A program made the translations under genes and the position numbers. 24,000 nucleotides of DNA from Oscillospiraceae bacterium (GTDB lineage Bacteria; Bacillota; Clostridia; Oscillospirales; Ruminococcaceae). Positions within the stretch are counted from its first letter, which is position 1; each line of letters starts with the position of its first letter. The stretch covers positions 282 to 24,281 of the forward strand of contig JAZOOR010000050.1 in assembly GCA_045655125.1 (NCBI GenBank), read 5' to 3'. The notes under the pieces are model-generated. The model made no database searches, was not told the DNA's origin, and saw only the letters and a list, made by a program, of their open reading frames with translations. This document shows positions 2,099-17,310 of the stretch, piece by piece.

Positions 2099-2119
2099 AA
2101 GGAAAGAGAGGCTTTTAAT

Positions 2120-2992: not shown

Positions 2993-4151
2993 TACTTTTG
3001 AACTTGACAAGTCTTATATTGCGGGAACATATGGTAGATTTCCAGTAGAGCTTGAGAGCGGAATGGGCAGCGAAATTTTTGCTCCCGATGGAAAGCGCTA
3101 TATTGATATGGGCTCAGGAATAGGTGTTACCGCGTTCGGCATTGCAGACAGTCAGTGGGTAGCCGCAGTGACAAGTCAGCTTTCACGGCTTCAGCACACA
3201 TCAAACCTCTACTACACCGAGCCTTGCGCCCGTCTTGCAAAGCTTCTTTGCGAGAGAACGGGTATGAAAAAGGTGTTTTTTGCAAACTCGGGAGCAGAGG
3301 CTAACGAATGTGCTATAAAAACTGCAAGAAAATATGCCGCTGAGAAAAAAGGCGCGGAGTATACTACTATTATAACTCTTGAAAACAGCTTTCATGGCAG
3401 AACAATAACCACCCTTGCTGCAACAGGTCAGGAGCATTATCACGAGCTGTTTCAGCCTTTGACTTCTGGCTTTGCTCACACCCCTGCAAATGATTTTGAG
3501 GCACTTAAAACACTTGCGGAGCAGAACAAAACCGCCGCTATAATGATAGAGTGCGTTCAGGGCGAGGGCGGAGTTATCGCGCTAAATGAGGATTTTGTAA
3601 AGAAAACTGCAGAGTATGCAAAGGAAAATGACATTCTTTTAATTGTTGACGAGGTGCAGACAGGAAACGGCAGAACAGGCAAGCTTTATGCCTATATGAA
3701 TTATGGCATTACCCCCGACATTGTTTCCACTGCAAAGGGAATAGGCGGCGGCCTTCCCCTCGGCGCTTGCCTACTTGGAGAAAAGGTTGAATTTACATTA
3801 GGAAAAGGCGACCACGGCTCTACCTTTGGCGGAAACCCCGTTTGCTGCGCGGGTGCGCTCAGCGTCCTTGAGAGAATTGATGAAAAGCTTCTTTCAGAGG
3901 TGGAGGATAAGAGCAAATATATTTTCGATAGATTAAACGGCGCAGAGGGAATTGAAAGCGTCAGCGGTCTGGGACTTATGATAGGCATTAAAACCGTAAA
4001 GCCTGCTTCCGAGGTTGTAAATGCCTGCATTGAAAAAGGCGTTCTCTGCCTTACTGCTAAGGATAAGGTCAGACTTCTGCCTGCGCTTAATATTCCTATG
4101 GATATTCTCGCCGAGGCTATTGAGATAATCTGTGGTATTTGCAAAGAGTAA
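2985..4151 (+). CDS. argD: Acetylornithine aminotransferase (class III PLP aminotransferase)
   Basis: Motifs seen are SGAEANE, DEVQTGNGRTGK, STAKGIGGG (PLP lysine) and STFGGNP. The start overlaps the argB stop by 8 nt, with GGAGGA at 2974-2979. Confidence 0.9.
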   Translation: MNNTFELDKSYIAGTYGRFPVELESGMGSEIFAPDGKRYIDMGSGIGVTAFGIADSQWVAAVTSQLSRLQHTSNLYYTEPCARLAKLLCERTGMKKVFFANSGAEANECAIKTARKYAAEKKGAEYTTIITLENSFHGRTITTLAATGQEHYHELFQPLTSGFAHTPANDFEALKTLAEQNKTAAIMIECVQGEGGVIALNEDFVKKTAEYAKENDILLIVDEVQTGNGRTGKLYAYMNYGITPDIVSTAKGIGGGLPLGACLLGEKVEFTLGKGDHGSTFGGNPVCCAGALSVLERIDEKLLSEVEDKSKYIFDRLNGAEGIESVSGLGLMIGIKTVKPASEVVNACIEKGVLCLTAKDKVRLLPALNIPMDILAEAIEIICGICKE

Positions 4152-4163
4152 GGAGAAAAGGAT

Positions 4164-5153
4164 ATGGAACTTAATTTAAAGGGTAAAAGCTTTTTAAAGC
4201 TATTAGATTTCACTCCGTCAGAGATAGAGGGGCTTATAAAGCTTGCTGCTGACCTTAAAAAGCAGAAAAAGGCAGGCATTTCCCACCGTATGTGCGAGGG
4301 AAAAAGCGTTGCTCTGCTTTTTGAAAAGGACAGCACCCGTACACGCTGCGCCTTTGAGGTTGCGGCGGCTGACCTCGGTATGCACCCCGTTTATCTCGGA
4401 CCCTCAGGCTCTCAGATGGGCAAAAAGGAAAGCATTGCCGACACCGCAAGGGTGCTTGGTAGAATGTTTGATGGTATTGAGTACCGCGGATATGGTCAGG
4501 AGATTGTTGAGGAGCTTGCAAGCTGCGCAGGTGTCCCCGTCTGGAACGGACTTACAAATGAATTTCACCCCACACAAATTCTTGCTGATTTCTTAACCAT
4601 TATAGAGCATTTTGGCACTCTCAAGGGTAAAAAACTCGTTTATATGGGTGATGCCCGCTATAATATGGGAAATTCTCTTATGGTCGGTTGCGCCAAAATG
4701 GGTATGCACTTTGTTGCTTGCGCTCCCAAAGAATATTTCCCGGGAAAAGAGCTTATAGAGGAGTGTAAGAAGGTAGCGGCTGAAACAGGCGCAGTTTTAG
4801 AGTTTATTGAAGAGCCGGAAAAAGCGGTTATCGGCGCCGATGTTATTTACACAGATGTGTGGGTTTCCATGGGCGAGGCAGACGAGGTTTGGGCAGAGCG
4901 TATCCGCCTGCTTTCACCCTATCAGGTAACCCGCAAGCTTATGGACATAGCAGGTAAACAGTGCCGCTTTATGCACTGTCTGCCCGCATTTCACGACCTT
5001 AAAACCAAAATCGGCAGAGAGGTTTATGAAAAATTCGGTATGGAGTGCTTAGAGGTCACCGATGAGGTGTTTGAGAGCGAGCAATCAATAGTTTTTGATG
5101 AGGCTGAAAATCGACTGCACACTATTAAAGCTGTAATGGCGGCAACACTGTAA
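4164..5153 (+). CDS. argF: Ornithine carbamoyltransferase
   Basis: It has the STRTR carbamoyl-phosphate motif, [12 protein letters not shown] and HCLPAF (the ornithine-type signature). AAGGAG lies upstream. Confidence 0.92.
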
Positions 5154-5168: not shown

Positions 5169-5197
5169 TTGACAAGGCAGTTTGCGTGTGCTATAAT
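5169..5197 (+). promoter_or_regulatory. Sigma-A type promoter P1: -35 TTGACA 5169-5174, 17-nt spacer, extended -10 TGcTATAAT 5189-5197
   Basis: Both hexamers match consensus exactly, the spacing is 17 nt and a TGn extension is present. The promoter lies directly upstream of T-box leader 1. Confidence 0.8.
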
Positions 5198-5204
5198 GCA
5201 CTTA

Positions 5205-5482
5205 AATTTTTAAAAGGCTATGACGAAGACGGTTTGGTGCTTTAATGCTTTACAGAGAGTCGATGGCAGGTGAAAATCGGCAGCAGAGTTCCAAAAACCT
5301 ATCACTTCTGAGCCGGAAGCCCGAAAGCCGTAATGGTTAGTAGACGTTTCCCGTGATTGCTGCGTAAAGGCATAGGAGTTGATAGACTCTAAGAGTGGTA
5401 GCTTAGGCTGCAATTTGAGTGGTACCGCGGATGTTTTTAACACCCGTCTCAAAGAATTTCTTTGAGACGGGTTCTTTATTTT
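5205..5482 (+). promoter_or_regulatory. T-box riboswitch leader 1, specifier read as AUC (Ile) at 5301-5303
   Basis: Stem I elements seen are the GA/K-turn TGACGAAG (5221-5228) paired with CTTC-TGA (5305-5311), the AG bulge AGAGAG (5254-5259) and the distal loop GGTGAAA (5269-5275). The T-box sequence is TTTGAGTGGTACCGCGG (5414-5430). A terminator hairpin follows at 5442-5472 with a T-rich tail. The 5' boundary is approximate. Confidence 0.88.
5442..5482 (+). terminator. Intrinsic terminator of T-box leader 1
   Basis: A 13-bp perfect stem pairs ACCCGTCTCAAAG with CTTTGAGACGGGT, followed by TCTTTATTTT. Its 5' arm lies 11 nt downstream of the T-box sequence (5414-5430), so the intervening segment plus this arm could form the competing antiterminator. 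Confidence 0.85.
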
Positions 5483-5504
5483 AACTTTTTAAGGAGGAAT
5501 TAAA

Positions 5505-7772
5505 ATGTCAACTGTTGCAAACGACAAGATGTACGAGGTGGCGATGCGAATTCGCGAGATGCGACTGATTGCAGGCTACAGTGAAAAAGAAATGGCTGAA
5601 AAAACCGAAACCGCGCTCGATACATACATAAAGCTTGAAGCAGGAGAATTAGACTTTCCTTTTTCTTTTATCCATAAATGCGCTCAGGTGTTTTCTATCG
5701 GTATGTCCGATCTTTTGGAGGGTGCAACTAGCGCCCGACTTACATCATACACCGTAACAAGACGCGGAAAAGGTCAGCAGACCGCAAAAGAGGACGGTAT
5801 CAATATCGCCAACCTCGCTCCCAAATTCAGAAATAAAATTGCTGAGCCTTACTGGGTAAAATATGATTTCGACCCCGCTCAGCAGAATAAACCTATTCAT
5901 TTAGCTACCCACAGCGGTCAGGAATTTGACCTTGTTATCAGCGGAAAGCTCAAGGTTCAGATAGGTGACCATATCGAAGTGCTTGAGGAGGGTGACAGCA
6001 TCTATTATGACTCCTCAACACCCCACGGTATGATAGCCGTAGACGGTCAGCAGTGTGTTTTTTGTGCAGTTGTTCTTCCCGGTGAAGACACCAAGGAAGA
6101 AACTGTTCGTCAGAGCATTGTTACTGCAAAAAAATCCGAGCCTCTTGTCTGCGAAAAATTTGTAAAAACTCAGGAAAACGAAAAGGGCGCCCTTGAGAAA
6201 ATTGAATTTACCAATACAGACACCTTTAACTTTGGCTTTGATATTGTAGATGAGATTGCAAATAAGTATCCAGACAAGCTTGCAATGCTGCATCTTGATA
6301 AAAATAAAAACGAGCGCCGCTTTACATTCAGAGATATCAAGCACTATTCAAGTCAGTGCGCTAACTACTTTACCTCGCTCGGAATTGGGCGCGGCGACAA
6401 GGTGATGCTTGTCTTAAAGCGCCACTACCAATTCTGGTTTGCGATGGTAGCTCTTCATAAAATCGGTGCCGTTGCAATTCCTGCAACCAATCAGCTTAAA
6501 GAGCATGATTTTGAATACCGCTTTAATGCCGCAGGCGTATCTGCAATCGTCTGCACTGCTGATGGTGACACCGCCGATATTGCCGCAGCTGCAGCTGAGA
6601 AATGTCCTCAGGTTAAGGCTAAGGTGCTTGTAGGCGGGAAAAAAGAGGGCTGGCATAACTTTGATGAGGAATACAGGCTTTTCTCTCGCAAATTTGAAAG
6701 ACCTGAAAATGCATCAGCAGGCGATGAAACCGCCCTCATGTTCTTTACTTCGGGTACAACGGGTAATCCCAAAATGGCTGCCCACAAGCACACCTATGCT
6801 CTGGGACATTTTGTAACCGCTAAGTACTGGCACTGCTGCGAGCGTGACGGACTGCACCTCACTATCTCCGATACGGGCTGGGGCAAGAGCCTTTGGGGTA
6901 AACTGTACGGTCAGTGGCTGTGCGAGGGCGCAGTGTTTGTCTATGACTTTGACCGCTTTGATGAAAATGACATTTTGCCGATGTTTGCAAAATACGGCAT
7001 CACCACCTTCTGCGCGCCGCCTACTATGCTGCGTATGCTCATTCGCGGTGATTTAAGCAAGTATGATTTAAGCTCTATCCATCATATGACAACTGCAGGT
7101 GAGGCATTAAACCCTGAGGTACACAAGCAGTTTAAAGCCGCAACGGGACTTGAGATTATGGAAGGCTTCGGACAGACCGAAACCACTCTTGCTATTGCAA
7201 ACCTTGTCGGCACAACTCCTAAAATCGGCTCAATGGGTAAGGCTTCTCCCCAGTTTGACCTTGATATTGTTGACCCCGATGGCAACAGTGTTCCGACGGG
7301 CGAGGTTGGCGAAATTGTTATCCACACAGATAAAGAAGTTTCTTGCGGACTCTTTAAGGAATATTATCTTGACGATGAAAAAACCTCTGATGCTTGGCAC
7401 GATGGACTTTATCACACAGGCGACACCGCTTGGCGCGATGAGGACGGATATTTCTGGTATGTTAGTCGTATTGACGATGTTATCAAGTCCTCAGGATACC
7501 GTATAGGACCTTTCGAGATTGAAAGCGTTATTATGGAGCTTCCCTATGTTGTTGAGTGCGGTGTTTCTGCTGCTCCCGATGAGGTTCGCGGTCAGGTTGT
7601 TAAGGCAAGCATAGTCTTAACAAAGGGTACCGAGGGAACTGAAGAGCTTAAAAAAGAAATTCAGCAGTATGTAAAGGAGCACACCGCTCCCTATAAGTAT
7701 CCCCGTGTTGTTGTATTCCGTGATAGCCTGCCCAAGACAATCAGCGGAAAAATTCAGAGGAATAAACTGTAA
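5505..7772 (+). CDS. Fusion protein: N-terminal XRE-type HTH + cupin domain, C-terminal AMP-forming medium/short-chain acyl-CoA synthetase (ACSM/MACS-like)
   Basis: AGGAGG lies at 5492-5497. The N-terminus has an HTH-like AMRIREMRLIAGYSEKEMAEKTE and a cupin core THSGQEFDLVISGKLKV...GDSIYYDSSTPHGM. The ligase motifs are FFTSGTTGNPKM, GFGQTE, YHTGDTAWRDEDGYFWYVSRIDDVIKSSGYRIGPFEIES and PKTISGKIQR. Confidence 0.85.
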   Translation: MSTVANDKMYEVAMRIREMRLIAGYSEKEMAEKTETALDTYIKLEAGELDFPFSFIHKCAQVFSIGMSDLLEGATSARLTSYTVTRRGKGQQTAKEDGINIANLAPKFRNKIAEPYWVKYDFDPAQQNKPIHLATHSGQEFDLVISGKLKVQIGDHIEVLEEGDSIYYDSSTPHGMIAVDGQQCVFCAVVLPGEDTKEETVRQSIVTAKKSEPLVCEKFVKTQENEKGALEKIEFTNTDTFNFGFDIVDEIANKYPDKLAMLHLDKNKNERRFTFRDIKHYSSQCANYFTSLGIGRGDKVMLVLKRHYQFWFAMVALHKIGAVAIPATNQLKEHDFEYRFNAAGVSAIVCTADGDTADIAAAAAEKCPQVKAKVLVGGKKEGWHNFDEEYRLFSRKFERPENASAGDETALMFFTSGTTGNPKMAAHKHTYALGHFVTAKYWHCCERDGLHLTISDTGWGKSLWGKLYGQWLCEGAVFVYDFDRFDENDILPMFAKYGITTFCAPPTMLRMLIRGDLSKYDLSSIHHMTTAGEALNPEVHKQFKAATGLEIMEGFGQTETTLAIANLVGTTPKIGSMGKASPQFDLDIVDPDGNSVPTGEVGEIVIHTDKEVSCGLFKEYYLDDEKTSDAWHDGLYHTGDTAWRDEDGYFWYVSRIDDVIKSSGYRIGPFEIESVIMELPYVVECGVSAAPDEVRGQVVKASIVLTKGTEGTEELKKEIQQYVKEHTAPYKYPRVVVFRDSLPKTISGKIQRNKL

Positions 7773-7787
7773 AATTTGTTATTTCTA

Positions 7788-7817
7788 TTGACAAATTTCC
7801 CTAAACTGTGATATACT
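7788..7817 (+). promoter_or_regulatory. Sigma-A type promoter P2: -35 TTGACA 7788-7793, 18-nt spacer, extended -10 TGaTATACT 7809-7817
   Basis: The -35 is consensus and the -10 is near-consensus with a TGn extension. It starts 16 nt after the stop of the upstream ligase gene and directly precedes T-box leader 2. Confidence 0.7.
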
Positions 7818-7824
7818 TATTTAT

Positions 7825-8098
7825 ATATTGAAAGGCATTGACGAAGAGTACACAAAGGAATGTCCCACAGAGAGATGGCGGCGGGTGAAAGTCCATCGGA
7901 AACAGCTTTTGTGTTTGTAGCTTCTGAGCCGAAAGGAAGAAAGCGTGCGCGTGAGTAGAACCTTTCCGTGACTGCTGCGTAAATGCATAGGAGTTGTTAG
8001 ACTCTAAGAGTGGCGGCGAGAGCTGCAATTTGAGTGGTACCGCGGGTGTATTTTACAGCACTCGTCTCAAAGTCATAGCTTTGGGGCGGGTGTTTTTT
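7825..8098 (+). promoter_or_regulatory. T-box riboswitch leader 2, specifier read as GUA (Val) at 7917-7919
   Basis: Elements seen are TGACGAAG (7839-7846) paired with CTTC-TGA (7921-7927), helix ACACAAA/TTTGTGT, AG bulge AGAGAG (7869-7874), distal loop GGTGAAA (7884-7890), T-box sequence TTTGAGTGGTACCGCGG (8029-8045) and a terminator at 8059-8098. The 3' half is close to identical to leader 1. Confidence 0.88.
8059..8098 (+). terminator. Intrinsic terminator of T-box leader 2
   Basis: A 14-bp stem pairs CACTCGTCTCAAAG with CTTTGGGGCGGGTG (three G-U pairs), with a 6-nt loop, followed by TTTTTT at 8093-8098. Confidence 0.82.
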
Positions 8099-8124
8099 CG
8101 TCCCGACAGAACGGAGAGAATGAA

Positions 8125-10413
8125 ATGAAACAGATTACAGGGCTTGATTTTAAAATTCAGGAAATGGCAGGGCGTATCCGCGAGCTTCGTGAGATTGTCG
8201 GTCTTTCTGCCGAGCAGATGGCAGAGAAGACAGATGTTTCAGTAGAGGAATATCTTCTTTGCGAGGAGGGCAAAAGTGACCTAAACTTTGCCTTCATCTA
8301 TCGTTGTGCTCTGGCTTTCGGTGTTAACGTTACCGATATTATCGAGGGTTACAGCCCTAAGCTACGCTCTTATACCGTTACAAGAAACGGCGCAGGTCAG
8401 CAGATAGCCAATGCCCACGGTATGACCTATTATAACCTTGCATATGCTTTTCAGAACAGAATTGCTGAGCCTCTTTATGTCCGCAGCGCATATGACGAGT
8501 CAGCACAGGGAAAGGATATAGAGCTTACCACCCATTCGGGACAGGAGTGCGATATAGTAATAGAGGGTAACCTTATGGTGCAGATAGGTGAGCATCGTGA
8601 GGTGCTTTCTGCAGGTGACAGCATTTATTTTGACAGCTCCACCCCCCACGGCATGATTGCTGTAAATGGTAAGGACTGTGTTTTCTATGCCATAGTTCTA
8701 AACCCGACGGGTGAGCCTATCCCTGAGTTTGCGGCTAAGCCTAAAATCCCCGAAACCGTTAAAATCCCCGATGATACACGCGAGAGAATTTACCGTAACT
8801 ATACCACCGTTAAAAAGAATGAAAACGGAACCCCCGTTTCCATTGAATTTAAAAATACCGAGAAATTCAATTTCGCCTTTGACCTTGTCGACGCTCTCGC
8901 AGAGCGTGAGCCCGAAAAGCTTGCTATGCTACATATCGACAAAGAGGGAAAGGAGCGCCGCTTTACCTTCTCGGATATCAGCCGCGCCTCAAGTCAGTGC
9001 GCTAACTACTTTAAGTCACTCGGCATAAAGAAGGGCGACCGCGTTATGCTGGTCTTGAAGCGTCACTACCAGTTCTGGTTTGCGACCATTGGCTTAAACA
9101 AGCTTGGCGCTATTGCAATCCCCGCAACAAATCAGCTTCTTGAACACGATTTTGAGTATCGCTTTAAGGCGGCAGGAGTAAACACAATTATCTGCACCGC
9201 TGACGGTGATACTGCTAGAGAGGTAGAGGCGGCCGCCGAGAAGTACGGAAAAATTAAAAACAAGCTTATTGTTAACGGCAAAAGAGAGGGCTGGCGCAGC
9301 TTTGATGAGGAGTACACCCTCTTTAATAACTCCTTTGAGCGCACAGAGGATTCTCCCTGCGGTGATGACCTGCTTCTTATGTTCTTTACTTCGGGAACAA
9401 CAGGGTATCCCAAAATTGCGGCTCATAACCACAAATATCCCCTCGGCCATTTTCACACTGCTAAATACTGGCATAATGTTGATCCCGACGGTCTGCACTT
9501 TACCATTTCCGATACAGGCTGGGCAAAATCTATGTGGGGCAAGCTCTATGGTCAGTGGCTGTGCGAGGCGGCAATATTTGTCTATGACTTTGATAGGTTT
9601 GATGCCGCTGAAATCCTGCCTATGTTTGCAAAGCATAATATAACAACCTTCTGTGCACCCCCCACAATGCTTAGAATGATGGTTAAGCAGGATATTTCTA
9701 AATATGACCTTTCTTCCGTAAAGCATATGACAACCGCTGGTGAAGCACTCAATCCTGAGGTTTACCGTCAATTTGAAAAAGCAACGGGACTTCAGATTTT
9801 AGAGGGCTTTGGACAGACAGAAAGTACAATGATAATAGGAAATATGCGCGGTGCCGCGCATAAGATTGGCTCAATGGGCAAGCCTGCGCCTATTTATGAT
9901 GTAGAGCTTGTAGATGCCGATGGAAACCCTGTGCCCACAGGTGAGCCGGGCGAAATCGTTATCAATGTCAAAAACGGTATGCCCTGCGGTTTATTTACCG
10001 GCTACTATGGTGATGAGGAGAAAACACGCGAAGTTCTGCACGATGGATATTACCATACCGGCGACACCGCCTGGCGCGATGAGGATGGATATTTCTGGTA
10101 TGTCGGCAGGGTTGATGATGTTATCAAGTCCTCGGGCTACCGCATAGGACCCTTTGAGATTGAAAGCGTTATTATGGAGCTTCCCTATGTTCTTGAGTGT
10201 GGTGTATCCGCCGTTCCTGATGAGGTCAGGGGACAGATAGTCAAGGCAAGCATAGTCTTAACAAAAGGCACAGAGGGAACCGAGGAGCTTAAAAAGGAAA
10301 TTCAGAATTATGTTAAGGAGCACACCGCTCCCTATAAATACCCTCGTGTTGTTGTTTTTCGCGATAGCCTCCCCAAAACAGTCAGCGGAAAAATTCAGCG
10401 TAATAAGCTATAA
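8125..10413 (+). CDS. Paralogous fusion protein: XRE-type HTH + cupin + AMP-forming acyl-CoA synthetase (ACSM/MACS-like)
   Basis: The architecture and motifs match 5505-7772: THSGQECDIVIEGNLMV...GDSIYFDSSTPHGM, FFTSGTTGYPKI, GFGQTE, YHTGDTAWRDEDGYFWYVGRVDDVIKSSGYRIGPFEIES and PKTVSGKIQR. GGAGAG lies at 8113-8118. Confidence 0.85.
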   Translation: MKQITGLDFKIQEMAGRIRELREIVGLSAEQMAEKTDVSVEEYLLCEEGKSDLNFAFIYRCALAFGVNVTDIIEGYSPKLRSYTVTRNGAGQQIANAHGMTYYNLAYAFQNRIAEPLYVRSAYDESAQGKDIELTTHSGQECDIVIEGNLMVQIGEHREVLSAGDSIYFDSSTPHGMIAVNGKDCVFYAIVLNPTGEPIPEFAAKPKIPETVKIPDDTRERIYRNYTTVKKNENGTPVSIEFKNTEKFNFAFDLVDALAEREPEKLAMLHIDKEGKERRFTFSDISRASSQCANYFKSLGIKKGDRVMLVLKRHYQFWFATIGLNKLGAIAIPATNQLLEHDFEYRFKAAGVNTIICTADGDTAREVEAAAEKYGKIKNKLIVNGKREGWRSFDEEYTLFNNSFERTEDSPCGDDLLLMFFTSGTTGYPKIAAHNHKYPLGHFHTAKYWHNVDPDGLHFTISDTGWAKSMWGKLYGQWLCEAAIFVYDFDRFDAAEILPMFAKHNITTFCAPPTMLRMMVKQDISKYDLSSVKHMTTAGEALNPEVYRQFEKATGLQILEGFGQTESTMIIGNMRGAAHKIGSMGKPAPIYDVELVDADGNPVPTGEPGEIVINVKNGMPCGLFTGYYGDEEKTREVLHDGYYHTGDTAWRDEDGYFWYVGRVDDVIKSSGYRIGPFEIESVIMELPYVLECGVSAVPDEVRGQIVKASIVLTKGTEGTEELKKEIQNYVKEHTAPYKYPRVVVFRDSLPKTVSGKIQRNKL

Positions 10414-10422
10414 GGTGATATA

Positions 10423-11088
10423 ATGGATTTTAAAAGAATCACTATGCTTTGCGGTCATTATGGCAGCGGAAAAACCAATGTTGCCGTAAATCTCGCACTT
10501 AAAATGGCAGAGAGCCGCGAAAACGTTGTGGCGCTCGATCTTGATATCGTAAACCCCTATTTCAGAACAAAGGATAGTATAAAGGAGCTGAAAGAGGCGG
10601 GAATTCGCCTTATTGCATCCTCTTATGCTAATACCAATGTTGATATTCCCGCGCTACCGCAGGAAATGTATGCAGTAACCGATGATAAGAGTATAACCGC
10701 GGTTTTAGATGTCGGTGGAGATGACAGAGGCGCACTTGCATTAGGCCGCCTTGCCCCCGCCATACTATCCGAAAACGATTATGAAATGCTTATGGTCATA
10801 AACTGCTACAGACCGCTTACAAAAACCGCCAAAGAGACCATTAAGGTTATGCGCGAGATAGAAACCGCCTGCGGCATTAAGTTTACGGGACTTGTCAACA
10901 ACTCAAATCTCGGCGCAATCACAACGCAGGAGGATATAATCGCCTCGCTGCCGTATGCGCAGGAGATTTCCGAAAAAACGGGGCTTCCCCTCGTTTACAC
11001 AAGTGTTCGTGAGGACATTTCTGAGGGACTTATGGAAAAAGTACCAAATCTTTTCCCATTATCCTTGCAGAAAAACCTCTTGATATAA
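10423..11088 (+). CDS. P-loop NTPase of unknown role (SIMIBI-like; Walker A GHYGSGKT)
   Basis: Motifs seen are Walker A GHYGSGKTN, then ALDLDIVNPYF and LDVGGDDRG (Walker B/switch-like). It lies 9 nt after the ligase stop and 31 nt before the ferredoxin gene. The family assignment is tentative. Confidence 0.6.
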   Translation: MDFKRITMLCGHYGSGKTNVAVNLALKMAESRENVVALDLDIVNPYFRTKDSIKELKEAGIRLIASSYANTNVDIPALPQEMYAVTDDKSITAVLDVGGDDRGALALGRLAPAILSENDYEMLMVINCYRPLTKTAKETIKVMREIETACGIKFTGLVNNSNLGAITTQEDIIASLPYAQEISEKTGLPLVYTSVREDISEGLMEKVPNLFPLSLQKNLLI

Positions 11089-11119
11089 CTTTTCGATTTT
11101 ATGAAAGGGAGTAATACAT

Positions 11120-11326
11120 ATGGCAAAACTCACATTTAAAACCGACAACTGTAAGGGCTGCGGACTTTGTATTGATGCCTGCCCCAAGAAGCTCTTGAGA
11201 CTTGCAGCAGACAAAATCAATTTAAAGGGACACCACCCCGCAGAAATTATTGATGAGGCTGCGTGCGTTGGATGTGCATCCTGTGCAATGATGTGTCCCG
11301 ACTGCATTATTAAGGTAGAAAGGTAG
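11120..11326 (+). CDS. 2x[4Fe-4S] ferredoxin, delta-type subunit of 2-oxoacid:ferredoxin oxidoreductase
   Basis: It is 68 aa with two CxxCxxCxxxCP motifs (CKGCGLCIDACP and CVGCASCAMMCP). It sits immediately upstream of the alpha subunit. Confidence 0.85.
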   Translation: MAKLTFKTDNCKGCGLCIDACPKKLLRLAADKINLKGHHPAEIIDEAACVGCASCAMMCPDCIIKVER

Positions 11327-11335
11327 TGAAATAAT

Positions 11336-12403
11336 ATGGCAGATAAAGTTTTGATGAAAGGAAACGAAGCGATAGCAGAGGCTGCAATTTTAGCAGGCTG
11401 CCGCCATTACTTCGGATATCCTATCACTCCGCAAACCGAAATTGCCGCATATATGGCAAAGAAAATGCCTAAAATCGGCGGCTGCTTTTTGCAGGCTGAG
11501 AGTGAAATTGCCGCTATCAATATGGTATACGGTGTTTCCTCTACAGGTAAAAGAGTTATGACCTCGTCGTCATCTCCCGGAATTTCCTTAAAGGGTGAGG
11601 GACTTTCGTATCTCGCAGGTGCTGACCTGCCCGCGCTTATTGTTAATGTTCAGCGCGGCGGACCCGGACTTGGCGGTATTCAGCCCTCGCAGTCTGACTA
11701 TTTCCAGGCTACAAGAGCCGCAGGCCACGGCGACTTTCATATGATAGTCCTCGCTCCCGCATCTGTTCAGGAGATGGCAGAGCTTACTGTAAAAGGCTTC
11801 GAGCTTGCAGATACATACAGAATGACAGCTATGATTTTGGCAGACGGAACTATGGGACAAATGATGGAGCCTGTTTCTCTTGATTTTGATGTTAAGCCTA
11901 TGCCCGCAAAGCCCTGGGCAACTGTTGGAACTAAGATGGAAAGAGAGCACAATATTACAAACTCCCTCTTCCTCGTTCCTGAAGACCTTGAAAAGATAAA
12001 CTTTGAGCGCTATGAGCGCTATAAAAAGATTGAGGAAACCGAAGTTATGTACGAGGAGTATATGATGGAGGATGCCGAAATCTGCATTGCAGCCTTTGGT
12101 ATTGCCGCAAGAGTTTCCAAAAATGCCGTTAATGAGGCAAGAAAAATGGGAATTAAGGTAGGTCTTATCCGCCCTATCACCCTCTGGCCTTTCCCCAAGG
12201 CTCCTTTCAAGAAGGCCGCAGAAAAAGTAAAGCAGATTATCTCTGTTGAACTTTCTATGGGACAGATGATTGAGGATGTCAAGATGGCATCTGAGTGCAA
12301 GGTTCCCGTAACATTAGTAAACCGCGTCGGCGGAATGATTCCCTCGCCCGAGCAGGTTTTAGAGGCAATAGTCGAGGCGGCTAAAAACGGAGGTGCAAAA
12401 TAA
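11336..12403 (+). CDS. 2-oxoacid:ferredoxin oxidoreductase alpha subunit (context suggests branched-chain 2-oxoacid, VOR-like)
   Basis: The N-terminus MKGNEAIAEAAILAGCRHYFGYPITPQTEI and QAESEIAAINMVYG...SSPGISL are typical of OFOR alpha subunits. Substrate cannot be read from the sequence by eye. Confidence 0.85.
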   Translation: MADKVLMKGNEAIAEAAILAGCRHYFGYPITPQTEIAAYMAKKMPKIGGCFLQAESEIAAINMVYGVSSTGKRVMTSSSSPGISLKGEGLSYLAGADLPALIVNVQRGGPGLGGIQPSQSDYFQATRAAGHGDFHMIVLAPASVQEMAELTVKGFELADTYRMTAMILADGTMGQMMEPVSLDFDVKPMPAKPWATVGTKMEREHNITNSLFLVPEDLEKINFERYERYKKIEETEVMYEEYMMEDAEICIAAFGIAARVSKNAVNEARKMGIKVGLIRPITLWPFPKAPFKKAAEKVKQIISVELSMGQMIEDVKMASECKVPVTLVNRVGGMIPSPEQVLEAIVEAAKNGGAK

Positions 12404-13161
12404 TGGCAGTTGTATTTGATAAACCCCATGCATTAACCGATGCTCCTATGCATTACTGCCCCGGCTGTACACACGGTATAGTTCACCGCCTTGTTGCCGA
12501 GGTTATTGATGAATTGGGCATCGAGGGCAGAACTATAGGTATTGCTCCCGTTGGCTGCTCTGTTATGGCTTATAACTATTTTGCCTGTGATATGATTGAG
12601 GCTGCACACGGCAGAGCTCCCGCAGTTGCAACAGGTGTTAAGCGTGCCGACCCCGAAAACCACATTGTTTTCACCTATCAGGGCGATGGCGACCTCGCTT
12701 CAATCGGTATGGCTGAAACTGTTCATGCTGCCGCAAGAAATGAGAATATTACCGTTATCTTTATAAATAATGCTATTTACGGTATGACAGGCGGCCAAAT
12801 GGCTCCCACCTCGCTTCCCGGTCAGGTTACACAGACTTCACCCTACGGCAGAGATACAAGCCACTGCGGTTTTCCCGTTAAGGTTTGCGAAATGCTTTCG
12901 CAGCTTGATGGACCCGAGTACTTAGAAAGAGTCACCGTTAATAATGTTAAGAATATCCGCGCTGCTAAAAAGGCTATTAAAAAAGCTTTTCAGAATCAGG
13001 TAGAGGGCAAAGGCTTCTCACTTATTGAAGTTGTTTCTTCCTGCCCTACAAACTGGGGTATGACACCGGGGGCGGCTCTTAAGTGGATTGACGATAATAT
13101 GCTTCCTTACTACCCTCTCGGTGTGTATAAGGACAGAAGCGCAAAAAAGGAGGAAGAATAA
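12403..13161 (+). CDS. 2-oxoacid:ferredoxin oxidoreductase beta (TPP-binding) subunit
   Basis: Motifs seen are YCPGCTHGIV, the TPP motif GDGDLASIG...NNAIYGMTGGQ, and a [4Fe-4S] cysteine pattern. It overlaps the alpha stop by 1 nt. Confidence 0.88.
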   Translation: MAVVFDKPHALTDAPMHYCPGCTHGIVHRLVAEVIDELGIEGRTIGIAPVGCSVMAYNYFACDMIEAAHGRAPAVATGVKRADPENHIVFTYQGDGDLASIGMAETVHAAARNENITVIFINNAIYGMTGGQMAPTSLPGQVTQTSPYGRDTSHCGFPVKVCEMLSQLDGPEYLERVTVNNVKNIRAAKKAIKKAFQNQVEGKGFSLIEVVSSCPTNWGMTPGAALKWIDDNMLPYYPLGVYKDRSAKKEEE

Positions 13162-13694
13162 TGGCTACAAAACAGTACCTGTTTTCAGGCTTCGGCGGTC
13201 AGGGAATTTTGTTTTCGGGTAAATTCTTAGCCTATAAGGGTCTGACTGAAGGCAAAAATGTAAGCTGGCTCCCCTCATATGGCCCCGAAATGCGCGGAGG
13301 AACTGCAAGCTGTAGCGTTATCATAAGTGATGAGGCTGTAGGCTCTCCTATCGTTTCAAATCCCGATGTTCTTGTTGCTATGAACCTGCCCTCCCTTGAT
13401 AAGTTTGAGGATAGCGTTGCAAAGGGCGGCATTATCATCGCAGATTCCACCCTCATTGAAAGAAAAGTTAAGCGCGATGATGTAACAGTTTACTATGTTC
13501 CCGCCACCCGCCTTGCAAGTGAGAATGACATTCCCACCCTCGCCAATATGATTATTATCGGCAAGCTTATGCAGGCAACAGGCGAGTATAGCGAAGAGGG
13601 CGTAAACACCGCTCTCTCCAAGGTTATTTCGGCAAAACGCGCCAATATGCTTGAAGCAAACTTCAAGGCAATCAAAATCGGCGCAGAGTATTAA
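13161..13694 (+). CDS. 2-oxoacid:ferredoxin oxidoreductase gamma subunit
   Basis: FSGFGGQGILFSGKFLA...SYGPEMRGGTASCSV is the OFOR gamma signature. It overlaps the beta stop by 1 nt. Confidence 0.88.
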   Translation: MATKQYLFSGFGGQGILFSGKFLAYKGLTEGKNVSWLPSYGPEMRGGTASCSVIISDEAVGSPIVSNPDVLVAMNLPSLDKFEDSVAKGGIIIADSTLIERKVKRDDVTVYYVPATRLASENDIPTLANMIIIGKLMQATGEYSEEGVNTALSKVISAKRANMLEANFKAIKIGAEY

Positions 13695-13711
13695 GTCAGG
13701 AGGAAAAGGAA

Positions 13712-14776
13712 ATGCAGATTTCTTTTACAAAAACCACTTGTCCTAAGGAAAAACCCGATAGCAGCAATCTCGGATTTGGTAAAATCTTTACCGACCATAT
13801 GTTTATGATGGATTATTCAAGAGAGAAAGGCTCTTGGTACAATGCAAGAATAGTTCCCTTTGAGAACATTTCTCTGCACCCTGCATCAACAGTTCTTCAC
13901 TACGGCTCTGAGATTTTTGAAGGACTTAAAGCTTATAGAAGAGCCGATGGCAAGGTTCAGCTTTTCCGTCCTATCGAGAATATCCGCAGAATGAACAGCT
14001 CCGCAGAGCGCCTCTGCCTGCCTCAGATTCCCGAGGAGGATGCGCTGCAGGTTCTCACCGAGTTTGTAAAAATTGAGCAGGACTGGACTCCGTCTGCTTC
14101 GGGCACATCCCTCTACCTGCGCCCCTTTATGTTCGGAAATGATGAATCACTCGGAGTTCACGCCGTTCATAATGCTACCTTTGTTATCATAGCTTCACCC
14201 GTTGGCAGCTATTATAAAGAAGGCATCAACCCCGTTAAGATTATGATTGAGGATGAGGATGTCAGAGCTGTCCGCGGCGGCACAGGCTATGCAAAATGCG
14301 GCGGTAATTACGCTGCAAGTAACCGTGCAGGCGAGAGAGCAGAGCAGAAAGGCTATTCTCAGGTTCTCTGGCTCGATGGCGTTGAGAGAAAATATATTGA
14401 GGAAGTCGGCGCTATGAATGTTATGTTCAAAATCGCAGGCGAAATCGTAACCCCCGCACTTAGCGGTTCAATTCTCCCAGGCATCACAAGAAAATCAATT
14501 ATTGAGCTTTTAAATAGCGAAGGCTATAAGGTAAGTGAGAGACTTCTCTCTATCGATGAGCTCGAAAAAGCTCTTGAAAACGGAACACTTGAAGAGGCTT
14601 GGGGCTGCGGCACCGCCGCTGTTGTTTCCCCCATCGGTGAGCTTTGCTACAAGGATAAAAAGTACACCGTTTCGGGCGGCAAAATCGGAGAGGTCACTCA
14701 GCACCTTTACGATACTTTAACAGGTATCCAGTGGGGTAAATTAAAGGATAACTTCGGCTGGACAGTAGAACTCTAA
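13712..14776 (+). CDS. ilvE: Branched-chain amino acid aminotransferase (class IV, long form)
   Basis: Motifs seen are FTDHMF, LHYGSEIFEGLKAYR, YLRPFMFG, GGTGYAKCGGNYAAS, PGITRKS and GCGTAAVVSPI. AGGAGG lies upstream. Confidence 0.9.
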   Translation: MQISFTKTTCPKEKPDSSNLGFGKIFTDHMFMMDYSREKGSWYNARIVPFENISLHPASTVLHYGSEIFEGLKAYRRADGKVQLFRPIENIRRMNSSAERLCLPQIPEEDALQVLTEFVKIEQDWTPSASGTSLYLRPFMFGNDESLGVHAVHNATFVIIASPVGSYYKEGINPVKIMIEDEDVRAVRGGTGYAKCGGNYAASNRAGERAEQKGYSQVLWLDGVERKYIEEVGAMNVMFKIAGEIVTPALSGSILPGITRKSIIELLNSEGYKVSERLLSIDELEKALENGTLEEAWGCGTAAVVSPIGELCYKDKKYTVSGGKIGEVTQHLYDTLTGIQWGKLKDNFGWTVEL

Positions 14777-14780
14777 ATTA

Positions 14781-14813
14781 TAAAAAAGAGAGGGCAGATG
14801 CCCTCTCTTTTTT
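14781..14813. terminator. Intrinsic terminator, potentially bidirectional
   Basis: A 9-bp GC-rich stem AGAGAGGGC (14787-14795) / GCCCTCTCT (14800-14808) has a 4-nt loop. It is flanked by AAAAAA upstream and TTTTT downstream, and sits between convergent ilvE and the minus-strand HTH gene. Confidence 0.85.
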
Positions 14814-14859
14814 AGTGAATAATGAATAATTCTAGTGGCGATTTATGAGTTGCCCGTTT

Positions 14860-15066
14860 TTATTTGTTTATTTGTGGATTATCGGTTCTTTCAAGCAAAT
14901 AATCTATCGAAATGTTAAAATAATCCGCAATTTGTATAAGCTCTTTTATTCCAGGCTCATGCTTACTATTTTCGTATCTACTGATAGTATTTTGAGTTGT
15001 ATTTAAGTCAATAGCCAGTTTTAATTGTGAAATTCCTTTTGATTTTCTGATTTCTTTTAATCTCAT
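14860..15066 (-). CDS. Small XRE/Cro-C1-type helix-turn-helix DNA-binding protein
   Basis: It is 68 aa. RLKEIRKSKGISQLKLAIDLNTTQNTISRYENSKHEP...IADYFNISIDYLL is a textbook HTH_3 pattern. Confidence 0.85.
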   Translation of the reverse strand: MRLKEIRKSKGISQLKLAIDLNTTQNTISRYENSKHEPGIKELIQIADYFNISIDYLLERTDNPQINK

Positions 15067-15083
15067 AAAATTACCTTTTGAGC

Positions 15084-15257
15084 CTATTTGTCTTGCTCTA
15101 AGTCTTCAAGTGCACTCTTAACTGCGGCAACAACAAAGGCTGAAAAAGTACATTCTTTACCAACAATCGCCTTTTCAACCGCCTCTATAACATCATCGGG
15201 AAAACGAATGGATTTATTTGTGGTTGTAGGATTATGCGGAATTTTAAAATTGCCCAT
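15084..15257 (-). CDS. Ribbon-helix-helix (Arc/CopG-like) small protein, 57 aa, absent from the ORF track
   Basis: I translated the minus strand by hand: MGNFKIPHNPTTTNKSIRFPDDVIEAVEKAIVGKECTFSAFVVAAVKSALEDLEQDK. GGAGG lies 8 nt upstream of the ATG (complement of 15266-15270). The KSIRFPDDVIEAVEKA beta-strand/helix pattern looks RHH-like. The gene ends 17 nt before the HTH gene start. Confidence 0.6.
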   Translation of the reverse strand: MGNFKIPHNPTTTNKSIRFPDDVIEAVEKAIVGKECTFSAFVVAAVKSALEDLEQDK

Positions 15258-15271
15258 ACATATTACCTCCG

Positions 15272-15334
15272 TTACAATTTGTAATTATATTGTATTACTA
15301 AATGTGCAATAAATAACTATTGCATTTGTAATGC
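15272..15334. promoter_or_regulatory. Divergent control region with three inverted repeats (candidate operators)
   Basis: The repeats are TTACAA-t-TTGTAA (15272-15284), TGCAATA-n6-TATTGCA (15305-15324) and GCATT-tgt-AATGC (15322-15334). ATTTGTAAT occurs twice (15277-15285 and 15324-15332). A possible + strand promoter is TTGCAT 15320-15325 / TACAAT 15343-15348 with a 17-nt spacer. Confidence 0.5.
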
Positions 15335-15365
15335 GTTAGTGCTACAATAAAGTGGAGGTGAGAAA

Positions 15366-15530
15366 ATGGACGAGTATAAAAAGCCGTGCCTTATATTGTT
15401 TAATGCATTTACCGATGCCAAGAAGAGCCTGATGGAAAACGATATGCTAAGAGCAATAGAAATTCTTGATACTGCACAGATGAAATCTGAGGAAGCATTT
15501 ATTTGCTTTGATGAGCAGCAAAAGGGATAA
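15366..15530 (+). CDS. Hypothetical small protein, 54 aa, absent from the ORF track
   Basis: Hand translation gives MDEYKKPCLILFNAFTDAKKSLMENDMLRAIEILDTAQMKSEEAFICFDEQQKG. A strong RBS GGAGGTG (15354-15360) lies 5 nt upstream of the ATG. I recognise no family. Confidence 0.45.
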   Translation: MDEYKKPCLILFNAFTDAKKSLMENDMLRAIEILDTAQMKSEEAFICFDEQQKG

Positions 15531-15586
15531 CAATAAAAAGAGAGGTTTCTATCTTTGTTTTTACCTTTTGAAATTTTAAAAAACTG

Positions 15587-15615
15587 TTGACAAGGCACAG
15601 ATGCGGTGATATAAT
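15587..15615 (+). promoter_or_regulatory. Sigma-A type promoter P3: -35 TTGACA 15587-15592, 17-nt spacer, extended -10 TGaTATAAT 15607-15615
   Basis: Both hexamers are consensus with a TGn extension. The -35 and about 20 nt upstream are near-identical to P1. Confidence 0.8.
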
Positions 15616-15622
15616 AGGTGCA

Positions 15623-15892
15623 TATTTCAAATGCGATGATGGAATTATTTCTTATTAGGTCTTTCATCAAAGAGAGCCGCCGATGGTGTGAATGCGGTAT
15701 GAAAGTGATAGGGAAGTCTCGTTCCGGAGCAGAGCGGCTGAAATTTTTAAGTAAGCGGCTTCGGCTTGCCCCGTTACCTTGGCAGAAGGCTTGATAGAGC
15801 CTTACAAAGTGGCTGTGTTTTCGCAGCAATCAGGGTGGTACCGCGAAATATTTCGTCCCTGAGACCGAAATTGTCGGTCTCAGGGTTTTTTT
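15623..15892 (+). promoter_or_regulatory. T-box riboswitch leader 3, specifier probably CUC (Leu) at 15718-15720 (alternative GUC, Val, 15716-15718)
   Basis: Elements seen are K-turn GCGATGA-GGAA (15633-15644) paired with TTCC-GGAGC (15722-15730), helix CTTTCAT/ATGAAAG, AG bulge AGAGAG (15671-15676), distal loop GGTGTGAA (15686-15693), T-box sequence AGGGTGGTACCGCG (15832-15845) and a terminator at 15857-15892. Confidence 0.85.
15857..15892 (+). terminator. Intrinsic terminator of T-box leader 3
   Basis: An 11-bp perfect stem pairs CCCTGAGACCG with CGGTCTCAGGG, with a 7-nt loop, followed by 7 T (15886-15892). Confidence 0.88.
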
Positions 15893-15928
15893 ATTGCCCG
15901 AGACGGCATAATGAAAGGAAAGAAAGCA

Positions 15929-17308
15929 ATGAAACAAATCAAAATCGCAGACACAACGCTTTGCAGAAAAGAGGGCGCATTTTCTTTTAAAGAGAAAATC
16001 GAAATTGCAAGACAGTTAGAGCGCCTTTGCGTTGACACTATTGAGCTTCCCGAAATTGAAAACGCAAAAACCGACATCTTGCTTGTAAAAACTATATCCT
16101 CTTTTGTTAAAAAGAGCATCATCTCGGTTGCCGCAGGCAGCAGCCTTAAGAGTATTGAAAATGCCGCTGTAGCTCTCTGTAATGCCGCAAAGGCAAGAAT
16201 TCGCATTGAGCTTCCCATTTCACCCGTCGGAATGGAATATACCTGCCGCAAAAAAGCTCCCAAAATGCTCGAATACATAAAAGAGTGCGTAAAATGTGCG
16301 CGTGAAAAGTGCGATGACGTTGAGTTTTGCGCAGTTGATGCCACCCGCGCTGATAAAGGATACTTAAAAGAGGCTATGGACGCTGCTATCAGCGCAGGAG
16401 CTACCTCTGTTACTATTTGCGACAGCGCCGACGAAATGATGCCCGATGATTTTGCGGCATACATTAAAGAAAATGCTAAGGATATTGCCGTTCCCGTCGC
16501 AGTTTCCTGTGAGAATAAAAACGGGCTTGCGGTTGCAACCGCAATTCTCTCTGTAAGAGCGGGAGCAGACTGTGTTAAAACTTCTGTAAACGGCGAAGGT
16601 GTGCCTCTTGACACCTTTGCAACTATGATTCGCAACTGCGGAAACAACTATGGCTTTGAAACTAAAATCCGCAGCACCGAGCTTCACAGAATTGTAAAGC
16701 AGATAAACTGGATAGTTGGTGCTAACGAAAATGATAAGTCTGTTGTTACCGTTTCTTCAAACGACGAAATGGGAATTCACCTTGATGTTAACGATAGTAA
16801 AGATGATGTCTGCGCTGCAACACAAAAGCTTGGCTATGACCTTTCACAAGAGGACAAGGCAAGAGTTTACGAGGAATTTCTGCGCGTTGCAGATAAAAAG
16901 ACTGTCGGAGCAAAGGAGCTTGATGCAATTGTTGCAAGCGTTGCTTTGCAGGTGCCCGCAACCTATCAGCTTGTAAGCTATGTTATAAATAACGGAAACA
17001 TTATTTCCGCCACCGCACAGATAACCGTAAATAAAAACGGAGAGCATATGCAGGGCTTCTCACTCGGTGACGGACCTATCGATGCCGCATTTTTAGCCAT
17101 CGACCAGATAATCGGTCACCACTATGAGCTTGATGATTTCCAGATTCAGTCGGTAACCGAGGGCAAGGAGGCTATGGGCTCGGCTTTAGTTAAGCTTCGC
17201 GCAGGCGGAAAGCTCTATAGCGGAAACGGAATTTCAACCGATATTATAGGCGCATCTATTCGCGCATATCTTAATGCCGTTAACAAAATTGTTTATGAGG
17301 AGGCATAA
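15929..17308 (+). CDS. 2-isopropylmalate synthase-like protein (HMGL-like TIM barrel + LeuA-type C-terminal domain) with substituted catalytic motifs
   Basis: The layout is LeuA-like: IKIADTTL... at the N-terminus, and GDGPIDAAFLAI and GNGISTDIIGASIRAYLNAVNKI at the C-terminus. Canonical DTTLRDGEQ is DTTLCRKEG, HxHNDxG is SCENKNG and GERAGN is GEGVPL. I prefer the ATG at 15929 (MKQIKIADTTL, preceded by AAAGGAAAG) over 15911. Confidence 0.7.
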   Translation: MKQIKIADTTLCRKEGAFSFKEKIEIARQLERLCVDTIELPEIENAKTDILLVKTISSFVKKSIISVAAGSSLKSIENAAVALCNAAKARIRIELPISPVGMEYTCRKKAPKMLEYIKECVKCAREKCDDVEFCAVDATRADKGYLKEAMDAAISAGATSVTICDSADEMMPDDFAAYIKENAKDIAVPVAVSCENKNGLAVATAILSVRAGADCVKTSVNGEGVPLDTFATMIRNCGNNYGFETKIRSTELHRIVKQINWIVGANENDKSVVTVSSNDEMGIHLDVNDSKDDVCAATQKLGYDLSQEDKARVYEEFLRVADKKTVGAKELDAIVASVALQVPATYQLVSYVINNGNIISATAQITVNKNGEHMQGFSLGDGPIDAAFLAIDQIIGHHYELDDFQIQSVTEGKEAMGSALVKLRAGGKLYSGNGISTDIIGASIRAYLNAVNKIVYEEA

Positions 17309-17310
17309 AA

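Follow-up and report, generated by a model that had tools for sequence, protein, structure and literature searches.

Organization of the locus

We examined a 24,000-nucleotide stretch of DNA, here called the window, from an Oscillospiraceae bacterium (GenBank assembly GCA_045655125.1, contig JAZOOR010000050.1, positions 282 to 24,281 of the forward strand). The window carries AMP-forming acyl-CoA ligases, a 2-oxoacid:ferredoxin oxidoreductase (OFOR) and a branched-chain aminotransferase in operons headed by T-box leaders, and it probably encodes a regulon that makes branched-chain amino acids (BCAAs) from branched short-chain fatty acids. All genes of interest lie on the + strand, and their coordinates are collected in Table 1. 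They form three units of one build, each opening with a near-consensus sigma-A promoter, then a T-box leader that closes with a strong hairpin and U-tract, and then the genes. Unit 1 carries ligase 1, unit 2 carries ligase 2 followed by six packed genes and a terminator, and unit 3 carries three genes. An earlier note on this DNA had described two promoter and T-box units ahead of two paralogous ligases, a tightly packed ligase 2 operon and a strong terminator behind it. All of these features are present at the coordinates it gave, and the intergenic spacings of unit 2 are indeed 9, 31, 9, -1, -1 and 17 nt. The end point given there, position 14813, does not stand, as the system continues into a third T-box operon at 15587-20681.

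The three promoters are among the four top-ranked matches in a promoter scan of 16 kb, and strong promoters equivalent to P1 are found upstream of 38 orthologous leaders. The three leader hairpins and the terminator that closes unit 2 fold with energies of -22.9 to -24.2 kcal/mol (z -6.5 to -8.1). The last of these, GAGAGGGC-AGAT-GCCCTCTC followed by T6, was not picked up by the pattern scan and was identified by reading the sequence and then folded.

Table 1. Features of the three T-box-headed units in the window.
Unit	Feature	Position	Strand	Evidence
1	Promoter P1, TTGACA-17-TATAAT, extended -10, A-rich upstream element	5169-5197	+	Promoter scan; 12/12 consensus match
1	T-box leader 1, specifier AUC (Ile) 5301-5303 then A5304; T-box sequence ~5412-5430	5211-5454	+	RF00230 88.2 bits, E 6e-20
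1	T-box 1 terminator hairpin; 5' arm overlaps antiterminator	5442-5472	+	-22.9 kcal/mol, z -8.1
1	Ligase 1, 755 aa: degenerate helix-turn-helix (HTH) + cupin + Macs/MbcS-type AMP-forming acyl-CoA synthetase	5505-7772	+	Pfam; NCBIfam
2	Promoter P2, TTGACA-18-TATACT, TG extended -10	7788-7817	+	Promoter scan; 11/12 consensus match
2	T-box leader 2, specifier GUA (Val) 7917-7919 then G7920; T-box sequence 8027-8045	7829-8072	+	RF00230 84.1 bits, E 6e-19
2	T-box 2 terminator hairpin	8057-8094	+	-24.2 kcal/mol, z -6.8
2	Ligase 2, 762 aa: XRE-type HTH + cupin + Macs/MbcS-type acyl-CoA synthetase	8125-10413	+	Pfam HTH_19, Cupin_2, AMP-binding
2	P-loop protein, 221 aa, SIMIBI-class NTPase	10423-11088	+	Weak CbiA/ParA Pfam matches
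2	2x[4Fe-4S] protein, 68 aa	11120-11326	+	Pfam Fer4 families
2	OFOR alpha, VorB-type	11336-12403	+	NF005507 VorB 533.7 bits vs cutoff 399, positions 2-350 of 352
2	OFOR beta, thiamine diphosphate-binding	12403-13161	+	Pfam TPP_enzyme_C
2	OFOR gamma	13161-13694	+	Pfam POR 9e-38
2	Branched-chain aminotransferase IlvE, fold type IV	13712-14776	+	NF009897 484.1 vs 307 bits; TIGR01123 408.5 vs 250
2	Intrinsic terminator closing the Val operon	14787-14813	+	Sequence reading; -23.1 kcal/mol, z -6.5
3	Promoter P3, TTGACA-17-TATAAT	15587-15615	+	Promoter scan
3	T-box leader 3, specifier CUC (Leu) 15718-15720 then G15721	15627-15885	+	RF00230 123.9 bits
3	T-box 3 terminator	15857-15885	+	-23.3 kcal/mol
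3	LeuA-like protein	15911-17308	+	Pfam HMGL-like + LeuA_dimer
3	Ligase 3, 839 aa: xylose-isomerase-like TIM barrel fused to AMP-forming acyl-CoA ligase	17311-19830	+	Pfam AP_endonuc_2 + AMP-binding
3	Amidohydro_2-family protein, last Leu-operon gene	19827-20642	+	Pfam; best solved relative uncharacterised 3IRS
3	Hairpin 3' of last Leu-operon gene	20646-20681	+	Terminator scan

T-box leaders and their specifier codons

The gathering score of the Rfam T-box model RF00230 is 93 bits. A default Rfam scan of the whole window lists leader 3 alone, which lies above that score, and leaders 1 and 2 were retrieved with permissive settings. The earlier note had proposed this model as a check on these two leaders. 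They match it over all 219 positions with E ~1e-19, and their scores stay under the curated cutoff, a borderline outcome.

The leaders carry the hallmarks of T-box stem I, namely a GA/K-turn base, AGAGA and GGUGNNA as distal motifs, and a specifier codon with a purine on its 3' side. Across 45 orthologous leaders from 45 species, the AGAGA, GGUGNNA and AGUAGA motifs are kept, and the T-box sequence of leaders 1 and 2, AAUUUGAGUGGUACCGCGG with its UGGN bulge, is invariant. The UGGU of this sequence would match A73, which we take to be the discriminator base of the cognate tRNA. Compensatory double changes occur in 27/46 predicted pairs, spread over stems I to III and the terminator. Terminator and antiterminator are mutually exclusive on reading the sequence, the 5' arm of the terminator, CGUCUCAAAG, being complementary to UUUGAG of the T-box sequence. 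Despite their sub-threshold scores, leaders 1 and 2 are true T-boxes that belong to a slightly divergent lineage, because the T-box sequence is invariant, 27 of the 46 pairs covary and the specifiers are conserved.

To read the specifiers, we aligned each leader class across about 80 species and followed the order of the specifier loop: codon, purine, 3' strand of the basal helix, GAGC. Leaders of the upstream ligase have ATC at the specifier column in every case (41/41), as do five further upstream copies that were labelled ligase 2 by BLAST. The leaders of the OFOR-adjacent ligase read GTA, GTC or GTG in 71 of 74 calls, with two more GTA codons found by eye. Those of the LeuA-like gene read CTC or CTG (16 of 18, and one more by eye). 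T-box motifs were also sought before the internal genes of the operons, and none were found apart from one or two chance motif matches among about 50. The pairing of codon to gene is a conserved property of the system, since specifiers are kept by gene class and internal genes have no T-box of their own. The specifier codon, Ile for the first ligase and Val for the ligase-OFOR-aminotransferase operon, is conserved by position. In 18 of the 41 Ile leaders, the base 3' of the AUC specifier is C in place of the usual purine.

Ligases 1 and 2 resemble branched-acid ligases

Ligases 1 and 2 are 66% identical to one another and both contain AMP-binding and AMP-binding_C domains. The top NCBIfam model for each is MbcS (437.5 and 444.5 bits, respectively), and they are best classed as MbcS relatives, not equivalogs. 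Among solved structures, MacsMa of Methanosarcina acetivorans (3ETC) is by far their nearest relative; it scores 618-621 bits (620.8 for ligase 2) and is 51% identical across the full catalytic domain (525 aa). The alignment shows that MacsMa and both ligases have in common the EGFGQTE motif, in which Gly replaces the pocket tryptophan of Acs, and the tryptophan of an AKYW motif. The roles of the pocket Gly and of the alternative pocket tryptophan, Trp259, have been set out for MacsMa, which adenylates C3-C8 acids, prefers 2-methylbutyrate and takes this acid alone through the CoA step (PMC10455477). MbcS activates 2-methylbutyrate and isobutyrate, and isovalerate is a very poor substrate (PMC10026030). 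This preference mirrors the Ile and Val pairing of the window ligases, and we propose that ligase 1 is a 2-methylbutyrate-CoA ligase and ligase 2 an isobutyrate-CoA ligase.

We compared 45 Ile-gated with 69 Val-gated ligases, grouped by the specifier of their own leader, and searched for columns that differ between the groups and are conserved to at least 90% within each. Ten of about 760 aligned columns separate the paralogues in this way. The only one in the catalytic domain is the residue after the GW motif, which is Gly in 45/45 Ile-type enzymes (DTGWGKS, compare SGWGKC in MacsMa) and Ala in 68/69 Val-type enzymes (DTGWAKS). The corresponding window residues are Gly460 in ligase 1 and Ala467 in ligase 2. 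We take this position to be that of Val310 in the acyl pocket of acetyl-CoA synthetase, an assumption of ours. With the proposed substrates, the smaller residue (Gly) goes with the C5 acid and the larger (Ala) with the C4 acid, as expected if the paralogues sub-functionalised into ligases for 2-methylbutyrate and isobutyrate.

Both ligases are fused at the N-terminus to a module of about 240 aa made up of an XRE-type HTH and a cupin (5505-6240 and 8125-8844), which the earlier note had overlooked. The other nine separating positions all fall within it (residues 11, 59, 60, 73, 78, 97, 100, 102 and 117 of ligase 2), and the module therefore seems to do something specific to Ile or Val. Its closest non-fused relatives are free-standing regulators of about 185 aa with 35-45% identity, and its solved relatives are uncharacterised regulators only.

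The oxidoreductase, the aminotransferase and a P-loop protein

In a profile check of the kind suggested in the earlier note, VorB is the sole curated model that the OFOR alpha subunit passes, and it is matched over its full length. Lower scores are obtained with a generic 2-oxoacid oxidoreductase model (317 bits) and with KorA (243 bits). A near-identical alpha-subunit protein from an Oscillospiraceae metagenome-assembled genome (MAG) is named VorB by NCBI. The VorB model is itself named after a methanogen enzyme. The 68-aa protein had been described as a ferredoxin. Its two [4Fe-4S] motifs are present, but it is most likely the delta subunit of the OFOR and not a separate ferredoxin, its top NCBIfam models being OorD, OGOR delta and PorD/KorD, each below cutoff. 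The class-IV branched-chain aminotransferase reported at the end of the operon passes two IlvE equivalog models.

The P-loop gene lies beside the OFOR in nearly all loci. The predicted structure of its product has a predicted local distance difference test score (pLDDT) of 86, and the best solved matches are signal recognition particle (SRP) GTPases and ATPase-type HypB, with a template modelling (TM) score of about 0.55, so that none of the solved structures is a close relative. The protein has the motifs GHYGSGKT, DLDIVNPYFR, DVGGDDRGA and NNSNLG. By analogy with other SIMIBI proteins, our guess is that it could be an assembly or maturation factor for the OFOR. We also considered a NifH-like Fe-S ATP-driven electron pump and found this unsupported, as there are zero invariant Cys residues in 22 homologues and the fold is generically SIMIBI. 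The protein has more than 8000 database relatives and is labelled 'hypothetical' in the few sources that name it.

The Leu-gated third unit

The third unit was overlooked by the earlier note. Its T-box, with a CUC specifier, stands ahead of a LeuA-like gene, ligase 3 and an Amidohydro_2 gene, and in many species the unit is a neighbour of the Val operon, sometimes upstream of it and divergent. Aligned with the isopropylmalate synthase (IPMS) structures 3RMJ, 3EWB and 3EEG, the LeuA-like protein has CRKEG in place of RDGEQ and SCENK in place of HCHND. The HxH motif was looked for in an alignment of the window protein and 24 orthologues and is absent from 25/25. The protein lies below all IPMS cutoffs (best IPMS model 289 vs 532 bits). 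We regard it as a catalytically dead pseudo-enzyme that keeps the IPMS fold and the LeuA regulatory, leucine-binding domain.

Ligase 3 belongs to another ligase family (PRK12583, 658 bits, under the cutoff of 832), and its gene always lies 3' of the LeuA-like gene and is followed by the Amidohydro_2 gene. We propose that it is probably an isovalerate-CoA ligase, because enzymes of the Macs/MbcS type handle isovalerate poorly; a separate ligase family in the Leu unit fits the substrate range of MbcS. In two loci of the comparative set, a free-standing gene for a xylose-isomerase-like TIM barrel of 303 aa lies directly 3' of ligase 1 (L081, 6435-7346; L082, 6436-7347). We considered the TIM barrel as a common ligase partner. 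The link is weak, the free-standing barrel being 23% identical to that of ligase 3.

Conservation and hosts

Relatives of ligase 2 are encoded in at least 595 stretches of the species-representative genomes scanned, and 80 loci were kept as the comparative set. The order ligase 1, ligase 2, P-loop protein, delta, alpha, beta, gamma, IlvE is preserved in most of these loci, and in a minority IlvE lies ahead of the P-loop gene. All 80 come from metagenome-derived genomes of Acutalibacteraceae, Oscillospiraceae, Ruminococcus and Christensenellaceae, and their sources are ruminant, horse, pig and human guts.

A predicted route from branched short-chain fatty acids to branched-chain amino acids

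We interpret the locus as a salvage-type biosynthetic regulon that would convert branched short-chain fatty acids into BCAAs, and place the probability of this interpretation at roughly 75%. In the first step, an AMP-forming ligase would spend ATP to convert an acid into its acyl-CoA, the acid being 2-methylbutyrate for ligase 1, isobutyrate for ligase 2 and probably isovalerate for ligase 3. The four-subunit VOR-type oxidoreductase would then use reduced ferredoxin and CO2 to convert the acyl-CoA into a 2-oxoacid, which IlvE would transaminate to Ile, Val or Leu. Transcription would start at a strong constitutive promoter and end at the T-box terminator, except when uncharged tRNA of the matching kind stabilises the antiterminator. 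In this scheme, tRNA-Ile would control ligase 1, tRNA-Val ligase 2, VOR and IlvE, and tRNA-Leu the third unit. The analysis shows the sequence features with their conservation, the codons that the leaders specify and the families of the proteins; from these we infer the substrates, the reductive direction of the OFOR, tRNA-dependent read-through, and what the P-loop protein and the fused and accessory domains do.

A three-step route of ligase, OFOR and aminotransferase to Ile and Val was already put forward in the earlier note, and it gains support from the VorB and IlvE model matches and from the branched-acid relatives of the ligases. AMP-forming chemistry commits the ligases to run from acid to acyl-CoA. 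That the whole is wired as a starvation regulon is likewise supported, because T-boxes induce on uncharged tRNA, and such induction fits biosynthesis and not catabolism. The biosynthetic direction is also indicated by the last gene of the operon, which encodes the final enzyme of BCAA synthesis, and by the different appearance of the known catabolic version in Blautia.

Several points weigh against this interpretation. Leaders 1 and 2 fall 5-9 bits short of the RF00230 gathering score, and one ligase-2-type leader (L080, upstream of position 10001) has CTG (Leu) at the specifier position, which reflects either a specificity switch or a misalignment. The MbcS equivalog cutoff is 850 bits, and ligases 1 and 2 reach about half of it. 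The VorB model defines a subfamily named by homology, and OFOR beta, gamma and delta lie under every NCBIfam cutoff. In Blautia, an OFOR with the same subunit architecture works oxidatively (PMC6378601), and direction is therefore no property of the enzyme. VOR and IlvE stand under the Val leader alone, and starvation for Ile or Leu only would not obviously induce them; basal read-through, copies elsewhere in the genome or the usual co-limitation could possibly maintain their level. In about 15 species, many of them Christensenellales, the Val-gated ligase has no OFOR or IlvE beside it, and either the partner genes lie elsewhere in the genome or the ligase has another purpose. The loci that consist of a single Val-T-box ligase gene include L016, L028, L030, L034, L042, L049-L054 and L056. 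Finally, the host DNA covered is one 31-kb MAG contig, too short to bear on the presence or absence of ilvBCD, leuBCD and further VOR or aminotransferase copies in the genome.

Alternative explanations

T-boxes sense tRNA charging, not lipid status, and this bears on the best-surviving alternative, in which the ligases supply acyl-CoA primers for branched membrane fatty acids and are induced when amino-acid-derived primers run short, with VOR and IlvE co-expressed only on account of IlvE being a biosynthetic gene. This explanation draws on MbcS, which is the top NCBIfam match and whose demonstrated role in Staphylococcus aureus is primer supply for fatty-acid synthesis, and it would account for the species that have a Val-gated ligase alone. 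We nevertheless consider it improbable. The tight packing of ligase, VOR and IlvE is kept in most loci, the Ile, Val and Leu leaders map one-to-one to the three acids that yield those amino acids, and an oxidative VOR working alongside would destroy a scarce amino acid.

A somewhat less probable alternative treats the link to branched acids as coincidental. The OFOR would then be a general or other 2-oxoacid synthase, acting for example on 2-oxoglutarate, pyruvate or 2-oxobutyrate, and the ligases would serve other short acids such as propionate or butyrate. The generic and KorA scores of the alpha subunit are compatible with this, as are the sub-cutoff scores of the other three subunits and the C3-C8 range of acids adenylated by MacsMa (PMC10455477). 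It fits poorly with a full-length match to VorB as the only curated model passed, and with IlvE as the last gene of the operon. The specifiers are exclusively Ile, Val and Leu, the Gly/Ala switch tracks Ile versus Val gating, and MacsMa completes the CoA step with 2-methylbutyrate alone (PMC10455477).

It is very unlikely that IlvE and VOR form a catabolic cluster that oxidises BCAAs to acyl-CoAs for energy, as in Blautia hydrogenotrophica, since the cluster has no ptb-buk pair or ADP-forming synthetase for harvesting ATP and no amino-acid transporters, AMP-forming ligases work from acid to CoA-ester, and a cluster induced by uncharged tRNA would break down the very amino acid in short supply.

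Possible end-product sensors

A tentative extension of the biosynthetic interpretation is that each branched-acid ligase may be paired with its own end-product sensor, so that tRNA charging at the RNA level would be joined by allosteric feedback at the protein level; we think this possible but doubtful. For ligases 1 and 2, this role would fall to the fused XRE-HTH/cupin module, where nine of the ten paralogue-separating residues lie. For the Leu unit, the candidate sensor is the dead LeuA, which keeps only its leucine-binding regulatory domain and is always encoded 5' of ligase 3. As a variant of this idea, the HTH-cupin module may make the ligase a bifunctional enzyme and repressor in the manner of BirA. 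If the pairing is real, it would represent a type of regulatory module not described before for enzymes that form adenylates, and a biosynthetic enzyme, LeuA, would have been recycled as a sensor subunit.

The window ligases share with BirA, the biotin protein ligase and repressor, an N-terminal HTH on an adenylating enzyme. The resemblance is one of architecture, an analogy and not membership, and the two differ in that the folds and families are other ones, a cupin lies in between, and the promoters of the window system have no conserved operator. A 20-mer common to P1 and P3, AAAAAACTGTTGACAAGGCA, was considered as an operator for the HTH and rejected, as there is no conserved palindrome in about 130 aligned orthologous promoters. 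All that these promoters share is TTGACA, an extended -10 and an A-rich upstream element of a generic kind.

Comparison with known systems

Rumen bacteria, including ruminococci, assimilate branched acids to Val, Ile and Leu by reductive carboxylation, a physiology known from the 1960s, and Methanothermobacter has an anabolic VOR. Rumen methanogens make Ile from 2-methylbutyrate and Leu from isovalerate (PMC10658910). The locus resembles this classical route in its proposed three-step chemistry and its habitat, and the nearest characterised ligase, MacsMa, is likewise a methanogen enzyme. Work on the classical route has been physiological or enzymological, without a defined locus, whereas the window has a conserved bacterial cluster with one ligase per amino acid and tRNA-sensing control. 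The P-loop protein, the HTH-cupin fusions and the dead LeuA are extras with respect to the classical route. Compared with MacsMa and MbcS, the window ligases have the additional HTH-cupin module, the duplication into Gly- and Ala-types and T-box control, and they are linked to VOR and IlvE instead of fatty-acid synthesis.

The BCAA fermentation cluster of Blautia hydrogenotrophica (RUMHYD_00546-00556) is induced during BCAA fermentation and contains ilvE, a four-subunit OFOR, BCAA transporters, a GntR regulator and ptb-buk, through which ATP is gained (PMC6378601). It has ilvE in common with the window, and its OFOR, made up of gamma, beta, alpha and 4Fe-4S subunits, is annotated subunit for subunit like that of the window. 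A 'hypothetical protein' beside the 4Fe-4S subunit (RUMHYD_00553) stands in the place of the P-loop gene and may be its counterpart, a likeness of position. The window, in contrast, has ATP-spending ligases and T-boxes in place of ptb-buk, BCAA transporters and GntR, as expected for the opposite direction.

T-box regulons of Firmicutes include ilv-leu operons, leuA and BCAA transporters (PMC2494555). The leaders of the window are alike in riboswitch class and logic, an Ile, Val or Leu specifier gating supply genes for that amino acid, but they would gate the salvage of fatty acids, where the known regulons gate transporters or the acetolactate/isopropylmalate pathway.

Full-text literature searches found no publications linking T-boxes to branched-acid ligases or VOR, and acyl-CoA ligases and oxidoreductases are absent from the T-box regulon surveys consulted. 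The earlier note knew of no characterised locus with this architecture and control, and our searches turned up no published description either. The kinds of parts are already known, and the chemistry has long been known physiologically. As far as the literature searched shows, the new elements are a defined and widespread locus, T-box wiring with one ligase per amino acid, and the fused or degenerate sensor-like modules.

Branched-chain volatile fatty acids, which are used as feed additives, are required by many fibre-degrading Clostridia of the rumen and gut or stimulate them. To our knowledge, the genes behind branched-acid use in these bacteria have not been pinned down. The locus, with its at least 595 related stretches, is a concrete and widespread candidate for this nutritional habit, and it makes predictions on the acid taken by each ligase and on the amino-acid starvation that induces each operon. 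Branched-chain fatty acids are usually treated only as markers of protein fermentation. If the biosynthetic interpretation is correct, their consumption by gut bacteria could be predicted from genomes, cross-feeding with amino-acid fermenters such as Blautia would be accounted for, and a salvage pathway would be added to the T-box repertoire. Through the HTH-cupin modules, the conserved P-loop protein and the dead LeuA, the locus could also point to new ways in which ligases and ferredoxin oxidoreductases are regulated or assembled.

Neighbouring genes and the spacer between units 2 and 3

The neighbourhood is one of amino-acid biosynthesis. Upstream lie the end of argC, then argJ, argB, argD and argF (352-5153), the arg operon ending at 5153. 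Downstream, at 20884-23225, are a class I/II aminotransferase and a chorismate mutase/prephenate dehydratase (pheA), and a regulatory RNA sought before this pair gave no credible candidate. The spacer between IlvE and the Leu unit measures about 1.1 kb in the window vs about 120-470 nt at other loci. Open reading frames in its 14845-15560 portion encode a 68-aa XRE-type HTH protein (- strand, 14860-15066) and products of 57 aa (- strand, 15084-15257) and 54 aa (+ strand, 15366-15530), and this portion looks like a small inserted cassette.

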